From an uncultured SAR86 cluster bacterium (GTDB lineage: Bacteria; Pseudomonadota; Gammaproteobacteria; Magnimaribacterales; D2472): DNA of 64,000 nucleotides. Positions 2,990 to 9,099 of this stretch are shown in pieces. Position 1 is the stretch's first letter, and the number at the start of each line of letters is the position of its first letter. The position numbers and the translations under genes were made by a program. The notes beneath the pieces are model-generated. The model worked only from the letters and a program-made list of their open reading frames with translations, did not search any database and was not told the origin of the DNA. Location of the stretch: the NCBI GenBank assembly GCA_902558395.1, contig CACEDS010000001.1, forward strand, positions 72,180 to 136,179. Direction: 5' to 3'.

Positions 2990-4312
2990 TTGAGCATGAA
3001 CCAGACCAATAACTCAAAATCAAATATGCAAAAAGTTGCACTTACTTCCCTGGCAGGAACTAGTATCGAGTGGTATGACTTCTTTTTGTATGGTGCCTCT
3101 GCTGCGTTAATTTTTCCTACAGTATTTTTTGGAGAAACCACTCCTTCAACAGCTTTAATTTTATCTTTATTAACCTTTGCAGCTGGATTTATTGCAAGGC
3201 CTATTGGAGGAATAATATTTGGTCATTACGGAGATAAAGTTGGAAGAAAAAAAACACTGGTTATAGCATTAGTTTTAATGGGAGTATCTTCAACCCTTAT
3301 CGGCTTACTTCCAACTTATGCAATGATTGGCGTGGCAGCTCCAATACTATTAACAACTTTGCGTTTTGCTCAAGGCCTGGCAATTGGAGGTCAGTGGGGC
3401 GGGGCTATGCTTCTAGTTACTGAAACCGCTCCTGCAAATCAAAGAGGGTATTATGGAGCTTTTGCTCAAGCAGGAGTTCCGGTGGGAGTTATTTTGGCAA
3501 ACCTGGCTTTCATTGTTACAAGCTCAATGGTTTCCGAAGAATCATTTTTTGCATGGGGTTGGAGGATTCCATTTTTGGCAAGCGCTATCCTAATTGGTAT
3601 TAGTATGTATATTCAATTAAACCTGGAAGATACAAAAGCATTCAAAGAACTCGAGGCGTCAAGAAAAGTTGGCAATAAAGAAGAAATTAAAAGATCGCCG
3701 ATTATTGAAGCGGTAAAAAAATATCCATCCAAGATAGTTCTTGCAGCAGGAGCATTTTTGTCTATTCAGGTCACTTTTTATATCCTAATAGCCTTCCTAC
3801 TTGCTTATGGTGTAGCTAGTACTGAAGTTACAAGAGATGATATGTTAATTGCTGTTTTGATTGGTTCAGGAATAATGATTCCCTTCCAATTCTTCTTTTC
3901 AGCCTACTCAGATAGACATGGCAGGAGAGGAGTATTTATGCTTGGAGCAATACTTACTGCCATATGGAGTTTTGCGATATTCCCCCTAGTTGATACAGGT
4001 AATTTTTGGTTAATAGTTTTAGCCATTAGCTTTGGACTAGTTTTTGTTTCAATGATGTATGGCCCACAGGCTGCATTTTTTACTGAACTTTTTAGTACAG
4101 AAGTCAGATACTCTGGAGCAACGTTAGGTTATCAATTTGGAGCCATTTTGGGTGGAGCATTTGCTCCTACAATAGCAGCTTTACTATGGAATGATTACGG
4201 AATTATTTGGGTTTCAGTTTATATAGCTTTTGCCTCATTGTTAACTTTAATATCTGTATTATTTTTAACAGAAACTTATCAAAGCGATTTAAATCAAGAT
4301 TCTATTGAATAG
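2990..4312 (+). CDS. MFS transporter, metabolite:H+ symporter (MHS; ProP/KgtP/ShiA-like) family
   Basis: 440 aa with about 12 TM segments. N-terminal EWYDFFLYG and GHYGDKVGRKK motifs are characteristic of the MHS subfamily. Confidence 0.8.
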   Translation: MSMNQTNNSKSNMQKVALTSLAGTSIEWYDFFLYGASAALIFPTVFFGETTPSTALILSLLTFAAGFIARPIGGIIFGHYGDKVGRKKTLVIALVLMGVSSTLIGLLPTYAMIGVAAPILLTTLRFAQGLAIGGQWGGAMLLVTETAPANQRGYYGAFAQAGVPVGVILANLAFIVTSSMVSEESFFAWGWRIPFLASAILIGISMYIQLNLEDTKAFKELEASRKVGNKEEIKRSPIIEAVKKYPSKIVLAAGAFLSIQVTFYILIAFLLAYGVASTEVTRDDMLIAVLIGSGIMIPFQFFFSAYSDRHGRRGVFMLGAILTAIWSFAIFPLVDTGNFWLIVLAISFGLVFVSMMYGPQAAFFTELFSTEVRYSGATLGYQFGAILGGAFAPTIAALLWNDYGIIWVSVYIAFASLLTLISVLFLTETYQSDLNQDSIE

Positions 4313-4354
4313 CTATAGCACAAGAATTTAAAAACTTATATCATTAGATTTAAC

Positions 4355-4438
4355 TGCAAAGGGGTGGCCTAGCCTGAGATCTCTTAAAAAGAAACCCTTT
4401 GAACCTGATCCATACAATAATGGCGGAGGAATTGCATG
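4355..4438 (+). promoter_or_regulatory. TPP (THI-box) riboswitch, translational type
   Basis: Conserved core read directly: GGGGTG(4361) ... CTGAGA(4374-4379) ... ACCCTTTGAACCTGATC(4394-4410) CCAT-acaata-ATGG GCGGAGGAA. P1 is tgcaa 4355-4359 paired with ttgca 4432-4436. The SD GGAGGA (4425-4430) and the A of the ATG (4436) lie inside the aptamer. Confidence 0.85.
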
Positions 4439-6529
4439 AACACCATTAAAACCTATTTTTTTCTTTTTTTCTTTTCAATTTTTTTAGTTTCAGCTGATGT
4501 TGAAGAGGTTATTGTTCAAGGTGATTGGAGAGATACAAAATTAATTGAAGAGGACTCAAGTGTATTAGTGCTAACCTCGAAAGAAATTAATTCTGCTCCA
4601 ATAAAACATTTTGAGAATTTATCTTACCTAATACCAAACTTAAACTTTGCAGCCAGCGACTCAAGAGCAAGGCATTTTCAAATAAGGGGAATCGGCGAAA
4701 GATCTGGATATGAAAGGACTCCAAATTCAGCCGTTGGTTTTTTAATTGATGATATTGATTATTCTGGCCAGGGAGGAATTGCAACAACTTTTGATGTTGA
4801 TCAAATTGAAGTTCATAGAGGACCACAAGGCTCAAGAATCGGATCAAATGCTATGGCAGGACTTATTTACATAAAAACTAAAGAACCAACAGAAGTATTT
4901 GAAGGAGTTAGTGAAATTACAACAGGTACCTATGGAACTATAAACAGTGGTGTAGCCTTCGGAGGACCATCACAAATTGATGATTTAACATACAGAATTG
5001 CTTTAAGGAAAGATTACTCAGATGGATTTAGAAAAAATTTATTTTCTGGTAAATCAGATACCTCAAAAAAAGATGAATCTACTTTTAGGCTTAAAGCAAA
5101 TTGGAAAGTTAATTCAAAATCAACTTTAAAGTTTTTATTAACTCAAATAAACCTCGATGATCCTGCTGATATTTGGACAATTGATGGCAGTTTAAATACT
5201 CTTTCTGACAGGCCTGGTATGGATTCTCAAAAAACCAATGCTTATGGCATTAGATTCTTCCATATTCTAGAAAATTTTGAATTTCAGAGCTTAACCAGCA
5301 TGACAGATACTGATGTTGTGCTTAGCTATGATGCGGATTGGGGTAATCCTTCAACTCATTCGCCATATATTTATGATTATTTCTCTGAAACTCTAAGATT
5401 TAGAGAAACTATTAGTCAAGAATTTAGACTTTTATCAAATAAAGCTGATTTTAATTCCAATAAAAGATACGAATGGGTTGTTGGAATGAATTTTTTTGAA
5501 TCAAATGAGAAAAATTTAAAAAAAGATGATGGTATTTATGGTGATCCATCAGACCCCTATAGTCCTTATGTGAATGAAAGCTCATCATCAAGTAAATTTG
5601 ATATTCGAAACCTTTCTATTTATGGAAGTTTAAATTACTTAATAAGCGAGTCAACAAAATTTAGCATGGGTCTTCGCTGGGAGAACTCAGAATCAAAATA
5701 TTCAGATTCTTTTGGCGAATCATTTAACCCTTCAGATAAAATTTCGGGTGGCAAGATATCCGTTAATAAAATTTTAGACAAAAATTCTAATATCTTTTTT
5801 AGTATTGCAAGAGGATATAACCAAGGTGGTTTTAATTTAAATCTTGGGCTTGATCCAAATTCAGAGAATAGCAATCTTTATTATGATCCTGAATTTTTAA
5901 CTAATTATGAAATCGGATTTAATTCAAAAATTGAAGAATTAAATCTGAATTTAGCTGCTGTAATTTTTCACTCAGATAGAAAAGATCAACAGGTTTTAAT
6001 ATCAACTCAAGTAGATCTAAATGATCCAAATACGTTTACATTTTTAACCCAAAATGCAGCAGAAGGAACTAACAAAGGAATAGAGTTAGAAATGGACTTT
6101 CAGTTGTCTGAAAACTTAGATATCTTTATTAATTTTGGGCTGCTCAAAACTGAGATTAAAAGTTGGAAATCTCGACCAGAAATTGAGGGTAGAGCGCAAG
6201 CTCATGCCCCTGAAAAAAGTTATGCCATTGGTTTCAACTGGTACCCTTCAGAACAGTCAAGTTTATCATTTGATACGGTGGGTAAAAGTAGCTTTTACTA
6301 TTCTGATTCACATGACAACAAATCAAAATCATATTTCTTATCAAACATAAACTATAGTTATTTTTATGGTCAATGGACTTACTCTATTTGGGGAAGAAAT
6401 ATTTTCGATGAGTACTATTCAACAAGAGGTTTTTACTTTGGAAATGAGGCTCCAAATTTTATTGATACACTTTATGAAAGACATGGTGACCCAAGGCACC
6501 TAGGTGTTACAGTAAGATATGATTTCTAA
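4436..6529 (+). CDS. TonB-dependent outer-membrane receptor (riboswitch-controlled; predicted thiamine or thiamine-precursor uptake)
   Basis: 697 aa with a signal peptide, a TonB-box-like EEVIVQG, a plug domain (IEVHRGPQGSRIGSNAMAGLIYIKTK) and a beta-barrel ending in the terminal aromatic ...VTVRYDF. Confidence 0.9.
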   Translation: MNTIKTYFFLFFFSIFLVSADVEEVIVQGDWRDTKLIEEDSSVLVLTSKEINSAPIKHFENLSYLIPNLNFAASDSRARHFQIRGIGERSGYERTPNSAVGFLIDDIDYSGQGGIATTFDVDQIEVHRGPQGSRIGSNAMAGLIYIKTKEPTEVFEGVSEITTGTYGTINSGVAFGGPSQIDDLTYRIALRKDYSDGFRKNLFSGKSDTSKKDESTFRLKANWKVNSKSTLKFLLTQINLDDPADIWTIDGSLNTLSDRPGMDSQKTNAYGIRFFHILENFEFQSLTSMTDTDVVLSYDADWGNPSTHSPYIYDYFSETLRFRETISQEFRLLSNKADFNSNKRYEWVVGMNFFESNEKNLKKDDGIYGDPSDPYSPYVNESSSSSKFDIRNLSIYGSLNYLISESTKFSMGLRWENSESKYSDSFGESFNPSDKISGGKISVNKILDKNSNIFFSIARGYNQGGFNLNLGLDPNSENSNLYYDPEFLTNYEIGFNSKIEELNLNLAAVIFHSDRKDQQVLISTQVDLNDPNTFTFLTQNAAEGTNKGIELEMDFQLSENLDIFINFGLLKTEIKSWKSRPEIEGRAQAHAPEKSYAIGFNWYPSEQSSLSFDTVGKSSFYYSDSHDNKSKSYFLSNINYSYFYGQWTYSIWGRNIFDEYYSTRGFYFGNEAPNFIDTLYERHGDPRHLGVTVRYDF

Positions 6530-7112
6530 TCTTGTTCATGCTGATTGGATAGAACCAGCGGCAGTTATTCTTGCAATAGCCTATTTATTATTAGCCGTAA
6601 AACAGAACATAAGTTGTTGGTTTGCGGCATTTTTTAGTTCATTATTATATTTCTTTGTAATGTATTCTGCAGGTCTATATATGGAGGCAGGATTACAAAT
6701 ATTCTATTGTGTTATGGCTGTTTATGGGTGGACACAATGGAGAACATCTTTACCAAACAATAAAAAATTTCTCGTAAAAACATGGAATAGAAACCAACAC
6801 ATTAAAGCAATTTCATTGATATTTCTTTTAGCGTTTGCATCTGGCTGGGCGCTTGAAAAATTTACAAATGCTGCCTTACCTTTTATAGACTCTCTTACAA
6901 CTTGGGGGGCAATTGTAACGACATATATGGTCGCAAAGAGGCTTTTAGAAAACTGGATTTATTGGTTTGTAATAGACACAATTTCTGTGTTTTTATTTTA
7001 TTCAAGAGGACTATTCTTAACTTCAATATTATTTTTTGTATACCTAATAATTATTTATTTTGGTTACAAATCTTGGACCGAAATGAAAGATGAAATTGAT
7101 GCAAAAAATTGA
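6519..7112 (+). CDS. pnuT: PnuC-family inner-membrane transporter (PnuT-like, predicted thiamine transporter)
   Basis: 197 aa, 7-TM, with PnuC-type motifs (AYLLLAVKQNISCW, YGWTQW, NWIYWFVID). It overlaps the receptor stop by 11 nt. The thiamine assignment comes only from the riboswitch context. Confidence 0.7.
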   Translation: MISNLVHADWIEPAAVILAIAYLLLAVKQNISCWFAAFFSSLLYFFVMYSAGLYMEAGLQIFYCVMAVYGWTQWRTSLPNNKKFLVKTWNRNQHIKAISLIFLLAFASGWALEKFTNAALPFIDSLTTWGAIVTTYMVAKRLLENWIYWFVIDTISVFLFYSRGLFLTSILFFVYLIIIYFGYKSWTEMKDEIDAKN

Positions 7113-7926
7113 TAAAAAAATTGCTTCAGTCGATCATAAAATTGAAATTATTTCACCTTTAAAAATTGATCTAATTTCTCAAATTTTTCTATGTAATTTT
7201 AATGATATTAAATCTGTAATAAGGGTTGATTTTGATTTGCCAAATTGGTTAAAAAAACAAAGAGCTTTGGAATTTCAGATACTTAATTTTTTAAAAACAA
7301 AAACACAAAATCAAAAAATTTTATATAACGATTTTGATAGAGGAATTCTAATAAGAGAATTTCATGAAGGTAAAGAAATTGTATATTCTGATTTTAGAAG
7401 AAAAGAGAATTTAATTTCTTTGGGTAAAGAAATTAAGAAAGTTCATGAAATAAAAATTGATAACGTCGCAATTAATAATTTTGAAAACCTCATTGAAAAT
7501 TATAGAGACATTCTTAAAAACAAAATTAAAAATAATTGGTATCTAAATCAAGGCTTCAAAATTTTTAATTCTCTTTCTTGTGAAAAAGAGCAAATAATTT
7601 TTTCTCATAATGATTTAAATCGTGAAAATATTTTGTTTAATAAAAAATATTTTTTTATAGATTGGGAGTATGCGTCTGCCAACAGTCCTTATTTTGATTT
7701 AGCTACAATCATTTCCTCTTATGATTTTAATGATGAGGAAATTGGTTATTTATTTGATGGTTACGATAAAAATTTCCCTCTTGACCAAGAAAAATTAAAA
7801 AATTGGGTCAAATTTACTTTTTTTTTAGACTACATATGGAGAAAATGTCTTATTGAAACCACAATGCATGATGAAAAGACACTAAACATAAAGGATTTAG
7901 AAAGAAAGCTAGATATTTTTAAGTAA
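7090..7926 (+). CDS. thiK: APH/choline-kinase-fold small-molecule kinase, ThiK-like (predicted thiamine kinase)
   Basis: 278 aa with the Brenner catalytic motif HNDLNRENILF and the downstream IDWEYA. Size and fold class match thiamine kinase. It overlaps the PnuC-family gene by 23 nt. Confidence 0.6.
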   Translation: MKLMQKIDKKIASVDHKIEIISPLKIDLISQIFLCNFNDIKSVIRVDFDLPNWLKKQRALEFQILNFLKTKTQNQKILYNDFDRGILIREFHEGKEIVYSDFRRKENLISLGKEIKKVHEIKIDNVAINNFENLIENYRDILKNKIKNNWYLNQGFKIFNSLSCEKEQIIFSHNDLNRENILFNKKYFFIDWEYASANSPYFDLATIISSYDFNDEEIGYLFDGYDKNFPLDQEKLKNWVKFTFFLDYIWRKCLIETTMHDEKTLNIKDLERKLDIFK

Positions 7927-8020: not shown

Positions 8021-8221
8021 ATGGATAAATTTAAGGAAATTCTTACAGATCATATCTCCAATTGGAACATGGTATGGTTTGGCCTAATTTTTTGGGGAAG
8101 TGTCTTTAATGCTATAGCTATTCGCTATCAATTTACTGATATTACTATTTATTGTTACTTCACAGGTTTATGTCTTGGCCTTATAGCAAAGATAAGAGGA
8201 ACATGGTTATGGAAAATCTAG
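8021..8221 (+). CDS. small 2-TM membrane protein, hypothetical
   Basis: 66-aa ORF with two hydrophobic helices just upstream of the desaturase-family gene. It has no family signature and could be spurious. Confidence 0.3.
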   Translation: MDKFKEILTDHISNWNMVWFGLIFWGSVFNAIAIRYQFTDITIYCYFTGLCLGLIAKIRGTWLWKI

Positions 8222-9099
8222 AAAAGATTTCAGAAGAATTTTCCTTTGATAAAGAAAAAGAGATCGCTAGAAGTTTCTCAAAAAGGTTTCAATGGGAGAT
8301 GGCCTTAATTGGTGTTGGTCAAGCAACGGTTTGGCTATCTTTGTGGCCATTAGTAATTAATGGACATATTTCTTTATCACTTGGTTCTGTAATTGCAACT
8401 ATTTGTGCCTGTTTTGCATACCTGCCTTCGCATGAAGCGCAGCATGGCAATTATTCAAGGGGAAATCCAAAAAGACGTTGGATCGATTTATTTGTAAGCC
8501 ATTACACATTAATAACACTCATGTTTCCTCATGATGTTATGAGAGCTACTCACATGAAACATCATGCTTATACAAATAATCCAGAAAAAGATCCAGATCA
8601 TGATACTGCATCTGCTAAATCTCTTTGGGAGGTTATTGTTGCCACTCAGGCAGGGATATCAAAATATCAAGCAATAGCTAAAATCTATGAAAATGATAAA
8701 GCATTTATGAAATCCTTTAATAAAGGTTTGAATATAGGAATGTTATATAGAGTAATTCTTTTAACTTTAGTTGTATTTTTTCCTTTAGAGACACTTCTAT
8801 TATGGTGGTTGCCAAGTAAGTTTGGAGTCATTTATCTTTCAGTCTTTTTCAGCTGGTATCCTCATTATCAAGCTGAAACAGGAAGATATAAAGATACAAG
8901 ATTTTGGAGCCACTGGATGCCTAGATATTTAAATCATTCAATGCAACTCCATTTTATACATCATCTGCATCCTGGTATTGGCCATTATGATGAACCTAAG
9001 GCTATAGAAGCACTAAAACCTTTTTTAATTGCTAGAGGTGTTCCTGGTGCAGAAGACATTCCAGATAGAGTTAAACATAATCCACTTATCAAAGTTTAA
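8203..9099 (+). CDS. membrane di-iron fatty-acid-desaturase-superfamily protein (CrtW/CrtR-like His boxes)
   Basis: Three His boxes: HEAQHG, HMKHHAYTNNPEKDPD and HFIHHLHP. Two N-terminal TM helices. The track ORF starts at 8152, but Met at 8203 or 8209 (MVMENLEK) avoids overlap with the preceding small ORF, so the start is uncertain. Confidence 0.75.
   Translation: MVMENLEKISEEFSFDKEKEIARSFSKRFQWEMALIGVGQATVWLSLWPLVINGHISLSLGSVIATICACFAYLPSHEAQHGNYSRGNPKRRWIDLFVSHYTLITLMFPHDVMRATHMKHHAYTNNPEKDPDHDTASAKSLWEVIVATQAGISKYQAIAKIYENDKAFMKSFNKGLNIGMLYRVILLTLVVFFPLETLLLWWLPSKFGVIYLSVFFSWYPHYQAETGRYKDTRFWSHWMPRYLNHSMQLHFIHHLHPGIGHYDEPKAIEALKPFLIARGVPGAEDIPDRVKHNPLIKV

Follow-up and report, generated by a model that had tools for sequence, protein, structure and literature searches.

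A thiamine pyrophosphate (TPP) riboswitch operon of an uncultured SAR86 cluster bacterium very probably imports intact thiamine and traps it as thiamine monophosphate (TMP). SAR86 is among the most abundant bacterial groups of the surface ocean. The operon lies in a 64,000-nucleotide stretch (the window; positions 72,180 to 136,179 of contig CACEDS010000001.1) of assembly GCA_902558395.1, a genome of 1.29 Mb with 33% GC that is 93% complete and consists of 8 contigs. Its features, with positions counted from the start of the window, are as follows.

4350 to 4448, + strand: TPP (THI-box) riboswitch aptamer (Rfam RF00059)
4425 to 4430, + strand: Shine-Dalgarno-like GGAGGA (from the sequence)
4436 to 6529, + strand: TonB-dependent outer-membrane receptor of the Omr1/omp_thi type, 697 amino acids (PF07715 and PF00593; kept next to riboswitch and PnuT in relatives)
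6519 to 7112, + strand: PnuT, Pnu-family inner-membrane facilitator, 197 amino acids (PF04973, TIGR01528)
7090 to 7926, + strand: choline-kinase/APH-fold kinase, 278 amino acids, predicted thiamine kinase (thiamine to TMP; PF01633, PF01636)

Riboswitch, TonB receptor, Pnu transporter, and kinase form one unit in the order omp_thi-(ykoF)-pnuT-thiK. The initial annotation had described three genes 3' of a TPP riboswitch with overlaps of 11 nucleotides (receptor and PnuT) and 23 nucleotides (PnuT and kinase), and the open reading frames (ORFs), the RF00059 match, the Pfam families, and the motifs bore this out. An alternative in-frame ATG at 7099 would shorten the kinase to 275 amino acids, the length of many database homologs, and its overlap with PnuT to 14 nucleotides. 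The arrangement is not due to chance, because 67 of the 78 loci in other genomes that were informative have a homologous kinase 3' of PnuT (80 loci in GTDB genomes, with the kinase absent from 11 and the contig too short in 2). Families and gene content also support the proposed division of labor into three layers, in which capture at the outer membrane would be followed by diffusion across the inner membrane and trapping by phosphorylation.

The gene content of the genome points to the ligand. ThiL, which accepts TMP (PMC3020362), was found above its cutoff at C2:70144-71004, unlinked to the operon. Profile searches of this genome did not find ThiC, ThiE, ThiM, TPK, or TenA, and weak matches to ThiG and ThiD were rejected as HisF and NAD(P)H-hydrate dehydratase (NnrD). 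By tblastn, Escherichia coli ThiC, ThiE, ThiF, ThiS, ThiG, ThiH, ThiD, ThiM, ThiB, and ThiP had no match in the genome, while AceE and ExbBD did. An NCS1 transporter and a NadR-type kinase were also not found here. The check for auxotrophy suggested in the initial annotation thus gives a genome with ThiL and no complete de novo pathway. TPP is in demand, as AceE is present and, in our reading of the sequence, a Dxs-like C-terminal ORF lies beside thiL. Because ThiE, which joins the two moieties of the vitamin (PMC3020362), was not found, the operon most likely takes up intact thiamine, which largely settles the earlier question of thiamine versus a precursor. On the same gene content, a thiamine-to-TMP kinase would be the single step missing between import and TPP. 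By this pathway logic, the operon kinase is predicted to convert thiamine to TMP.

The distribution of these genes was determined in 61 genomes of the order, with kinase orthologs defined by E < 1e-25. PnuT was found in 40 genomes, the riboswitch in 41, a kinase ortholog in 33, and ThiE in 16, and the first three sets never overlap with ThiE. ThiE above its cutoff was found in none of the 24 genomes of the same genus, and kinase orthologs are confined to operon-bearing genomes. ThiL was found in 55 of the 61 genomes and TPK in none. Three genomes with neither the operon nor ThiE are incomplete (71 to 78%), and an apparent case of a riboswitch without PnuT (G039) was rejected, as its operon runs past the contig ends. 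This pattern says that most sampled SAR86 would need intact thiamine and that a minority would be prototrophs or pyrimidine auxotrophs, with the strategies mutually exclusive in any one genome.

ThiC accompanies ThiE in 11 of the 16 ThiE genomes and is lacking in the other five. The latter (G030, G031, G042, G045, and G054) have no TPP riboswitch and no PnuT; they are probably pyrimidine auxotrophs that presumably import the pyrimidine, and an NCS1 transporter was not found in the two that were tested. None of the 16 ThiE genomes has a TPP riboswitch, and their thiamine synthesis genes, including thiC, therefore appear not to be under riboswitch control.

The receptor contains Plug (PF07715) and TonB barrel (PF00593) domains, a signal-peptide-like N terminus, a TonB-box-like EEVIVQG, and Phe as its last residue. 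The transporter matches PF04973 at 1e-47 and structure 4QTN and scores over the cutoff of TIGR01528, a family named PnuC. It has the Pnu core without an extra N-terminal helix, the WxxW(x)3D motif (W146-x-x-W149-x3-D153, WIYWFVID), and Tyr/Trp gate pairs (Y63/W74 and Y175/W186) spaced as in Shewanella woodyi PnuT (Y77/W88 and Y188/W199); these are features of the PnuT subfamily, but motif and gates are family-wide, so that the assignment to PnuT is carried by context. For S. woodyi PnuT, the Kd for thiamine is 12 µM, neither TMP nor TPP is bound, and transport occurs by facilitated diffusion that the membrane potential drives (PMC5749112). We infer that such a micromolar carrier in dilute seawater would require both a concentrating receptor and a trap.

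The riboswitch appears to act on translation. The match to RF00059 covers the full-length model (positions 1 to 105) at 66.2 bits versus a gathering score of 54.3 (E = 8.7e-11), and this is the only TPP riboswitch in the genome. In helix P1, 4355 to 4359 (UGCAA) pairs with 4432 to 4436 (UUGCA), the last P1 base being the A of the receptor AUG. GGAGG at 4425 to 4429 takes in the 3' strand of helix P4 and ends 6 nucleotides 5' of the ATG. The leader lacks a separate expression platform, and both the ribosome site and the start codon are buried in the aptamer. The receptor starts at most 7 nucleotides from the aptamer end in 48 of 52 SAR86-type loci (receptor at least 50% identical) versus 3 of 30 distant loci, counts that include some duplicates and kin that are not independent; in distant loci the start expected from the alignment has a median position 108 nucleotides downstream of the aptamer. 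In an alignment of 25 SAR86-type aptamers, 97.5% of the cells are paired. Two-sided changes affect 7 pairs and are clearest in P3, P3a, and P5, while those in P1 are single rows and partly misalignment. Folding of the ligand-free leader was not unusually stable (z = 0.77), and the minimum free energy structure lacks P1 and P4, which is weakly compatible with an ON state. This anatomy suggests that closure of the aptamer by TPP would switch off receptor translation.

We propose that the SAR86 cell, which by its gene content could neither make nor assemble thiamine, obtains all of its vitamin B1 through this operon. At low TPP, the aptamer would be unfolded, GGAGG and AUG would be exposed, and the receptor would be translated, with the overlapping stops and starts coupling translation of PnuT and the kinase to it. 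The receptor would concentrate intact thiamine in the periplasm with energy from ExbBD/TonB (ExbBD is present), and the membrane potential would drive the thiamine cation through PnuT across the inner membrane, as shown for S. woodyi PnuT. The kinase would then phosphorylate the hydroxyethyl group, and the resulting TMP, which PnuT would not bind, would be trapped and made into TPP by the unlinked ThiL, whose gene is present. Once TPP was bound, P4 and P1 would close over the ribosome site and start codon, turning translation off.

The kinase belongs to the choline-kinase fold (PF01633, 7e-17, plus APH, PF01636) and carries the motifs HNDLNRENILF and IDWEYA. Its catalytic set (H173, D175, N180, D191, and E193) is kept, and H173, D175, N180, D191, D203, and W250 are invariant in 45 operon kinases. 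An AlphaFold model with a predicted local distance difference test (pLDDT) score of 94 has pneumococcal LicA as its closest fold (template modeling [TM] score of 0.75). The LicA choline cage (PMC4364537) is only half kept: Y197 and W251 are present (Y194 and W250 in the kinase), but W254, Y268, and E213 are not, with C253 in place of W254, S210 in place of E213, and no Tyr near 267 in a pairwise alignment. LicD (PF04991) was not found in this genome or in four related genomes, and together with the lost cage residues this disfavors a role as a choline kinase. Thiamine should suit the fold, as it resembles choline in bearing a hydroxyethyl group on a cationic center. Close relatives carry the automatic JGI label "thiamine kinase-like enzyme." In two genomes (G008:C2:38316-39166 and G024:C24:322-1144), the operon kinase is broken by frameshifts or stops, through either assembly error or decay.

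Several observations weigh against the assignment of the kinase and against the thiamine-trapping reading built on it. The kinase reaches 51.5 bits with TIGR02721 (ThiK), far below the cutoff of 299.45, and the best E value among the 45 operon kinases is 3.4e-34. A kinase-family profile places choline kinases closer, matching LicA at 6.5e-40 versus E. coli ThiK at 7.6e-15, values from different programs that are only roughly comparable. The initial description of the kinase as ThiK-like therefore holds for its predicted function and its fold and not for its family, the LicA type being closer by profile. Furthermore, the kinase carries an Asp where a loop glycine is usual and diverges far faster than its neighbors (at locus L039, receptor 70%, PnuT 66%, kinase 34%). 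In one family of the order, which is probably the Magnimaribacteraceae (f2), PnuT is present in 22 of 30 genomes and the kinase in only 2, and the kinase is absent from 20 of the 22. Some SAR86 thus manage without the kinase, which is the main caution against calling it indispensable. Lastly, related genomes are not independent samples, and with a genome that is 93% complete in 8 contigs, genes reported as absent are genes not found. As for descent, kinase trees do not separate the deep branches and place enteric ThiK in its own clade (Shimodaira-Hasegawa-like approximate likelihood ratio test, 99); an approximately unbiased test gave a borderline P = 0.044 from a quick tree, for a group that was named after a tree had been seen. 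A class-wide ThiK search returned nothing above the cutoff.

These points would be accommodated if the receptor and PnuT import thiamine while the kinase is an accessory acting on choline, ethanolamine, or a thiamine analog, with TMP made by an unlinked enzyme that is also present in the kinase-less family. We consider this improbable. The LicA-like profile and fold, the proximity of other choline kinases, the rapid divergence, and the f2 genomes that have import genes and ThiL with no recognizable kinase and no full-length ThiE all speak for an accessory, but the kinase has stayed coupled to the preceding PnuT in 67 of 78 loci, as well as in Sulfurovum, its orthologs occur only in operon genomes, LicD was not found, and LicA residues W254, Y268, and E213 are not kept.

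The kinase-less f2 loci run riboswitch-receptor-pnuT without a downstream kinase (e.g., L120, L121, L122, L130, L145, L146, and L149 to L165), and two of the kinase-less genomes are single contigs. PnuT is missing from the five f2 genomes that encode a full-length ThiE, and among the PnuT-bearing ones, G062 shows a partial ThiE-like match. Neither TPK (8 genomes tested) nor a NadR-type AAA_28 kinase (30 tested) was found as a substitute in f2, and the best profile matches were rejected as APH genes beside sulfotransferases that fall in a separate clade. Nothing special was seen in the thiL neighborhoods of f2, and no PnuT residues were found that separate kinase-less from kinase-bearing genomes. 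It is conceivable, though we hold it only tentatively, that the choline-kinase family gave rise to this kinase, as a thiamine kinase, separately from enteric ThiK and that f2 activates thiamine by an undescribed route; this may be a kinase not yet recognized, a ThiL that accepts thiamine, or phosphotransfer.

Other f2 loci (L136:3068-5731 and L137 to L139) carry a conserved APH-family kinase, a small secreted Cys-rich protein, and a sulfotransferase, to which L137 to L139 add a pair that we read from the sequence as adenylylsulfate-kinase-like and nucleotidyltransferase-like. The f2 genome G046 has 1,616,670 bp, with 36.4% GC in sampled stretches.

A second alternative is that the operon takes up a thiamine precursor or breakdown product, namely hydroxymethylpyrimidine (HMP), aminomethylpyrimidine (AmMP), formylaminomethylpyrimidine (FAMP), hydroxyethylthiazole (HET), or carboxylated HET (cHET), with the kinase acting on that moiety. 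The known moiety kinases ThiD and ThiM have a ribokinase fold, unlike the operon kinase. All five compounds circulate in seawater (PMC10881298), proteins of the YkoF type have affinity for HMP as well as thiamine (PMC3020362), and HET bears the same hydroxyethyl group as thiamine. However, HMP, AmMP, and HET could not become TPP in this cell on the genes found, as ThiE, ThiD, ThiM, and TenA were not among them; ThiE is found in 0 of 40 PnuT genomes, and the operon occurs in none of the five ThiE genomes without ThiC, which would have to take up pyrimidine from outside. Precursor salvage was rejected on this gene content and is very unlikely. In the least likely alternative, the riboswitch would control the receptor alone, and the transporter would be a genuine PnuC that carries nicotinamide riboside, or a PnuX for riboflavin. 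The match over the TIGR01528 cutoff favors this reading, but it is opposed by the coupling of the transporter to a preceding TPP riboswitch at almost every locus, by aptamers that lead straight to PnuT with no receptor in L048 and L075, by a motif whose last residue is the Asp of S. woodyi PnuT and not the Asn of 4QTN, by the NadR-type kinase not found in the genome, and by a distribution that mirrors ThiE absence.

Genes on either side of the operon were rejected as members: the upstream major facilitator superfamily gene (2990-4312) is present in only 7 of about 100 related loci and the downstream desaturase (8152-9099) in only 5. The former encodes a metabolite/H+ symporter (ShiA-like) whose stop lies 42 nucleotides 5' of aptamer P1. 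No promoter match was found between this gene and the aptamer, and read-through into the operon is therefore possible; the scan for promoters and terminators, which gave no site near the leader, returned fewer matches than in shuffled sequences and is uninformative. The latter belongs to the desaturase superfamily, its top NCBIfam match being the CrtR beta-carotene hydroxylase at 2.6e-17, under the cutoff.

Loci from more distant genomes show further forms of the module. Of 36 distant loci, 22 contain a small YkoF/Thiamine_BP gene, which in those checked sits between receptor and pnuT. Sulfurovum also carries the module with a TPP riboswitch; in Sulfurovum mangrovi (L180:3777-8087) it is a four-gene operon whose annotation shows frameshifts in receptor and pnuT, and a further TPP riboswitch lies downstream. 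In L048, L075, and L098, pnuT and the kinase occur without a homolog of this receptor in the locus, and in L075 an above-threshold TPP aptamer lies directly upstream of pnuT. Two loci (L038 and L128) have a YkoF-like gene that is divergent and directly upstream of the riboswitch.

The first SAR86 genome paper could not name a B1 transporter (PMC3358033), and some papers group SAR86 with SAR11 as a precursor user (PMC12998435). The split in B1 strategy described here can guide culture media and models of B1 cycling, and the operon can be used as a marker of demand for intact B1. The mechanism itself is already known, and the testable points are the kinase and the kinase-less family.

TPP riboswitches that hide the ribosome site within the aptamer, and so act by direct translation attenuation, have been described before (Barrick and Breaker 2007, PMC2258182), and in those riboswitches too the purine-rich 3' part of the aptamer is the ribosome-binding site. 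In the gammaproteobacterial order studied here, this layout is the usual one, with P1 extending over the first base of the AUG as well. Enteric ThiK/YcfN (TIGR02721), the best NCBIfam match of the kinase, shares its fold and the HxDxxxxN and IDWEYA motifs (hhalign probability of 98%) but is only 18% identical and sits in lpoB-thiK-nagZ, not in a thiamine operon. LicA (PDB 4R77/4R7B) is the best match by profile and structure, with D176, N181, D194, E196, Y197, and W251 kept; in contrast, V178 and T29 are lost along with W254, Y268, and E213, and lic gene context is missing, as is LicD from the genes found.

At the level of the operon, Bacteroides OMthi-pnuT-tnr3, for which the transporter roles have genetic support (Costliow and Degnan 2017, PMC5613172), also joins a TPP-riboswitch-controlled TonB receptor and PnuT to a trapping kinase. 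There the trap is a pyrophosphokinase that converts thiamine to TPP, whereas here it would be a kinase of the choline-kinase fold with ThiL as the second step. The initial annotation had cited a precedent for the receptor-pnuT pair but understated it, since an operon that includes the kinase, omp_thi-ykoF-pnuT-thiK, is already listed as TPP regulated in Shewanella (RegPrecise; Sun et al. 2013, PMC3766115 supplement). Compared by published annotation, the Shewanella operon shares the TPP riboswitch, the TonB receptor, PnuT, and a kinase annotated as thiK, in the same order, and the distant loci found here show its full four-gene form. In the SAR86 operon, no ykoF lies between receptor and pnuT, which overlap by 11 nucleotides; the YkoF/Thiamine_BP-like homolog of this genome lies on another contig (L202:2143-2463, - strand, contig C6). 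The SAR86 operon is therefore a reduced form of omp_thi-ykoF-pnuT-thiK in which ykoF has been relocated and the separate expression platform lost, in a host in which a de novo pathway was not found. As omr1 adjoining a thiamine diphosphate (TDP) riboswitch has also been reported in two SAR86 clusters (PMC10881298), the design is already published, and what we describe is a streamlined form of a known system.

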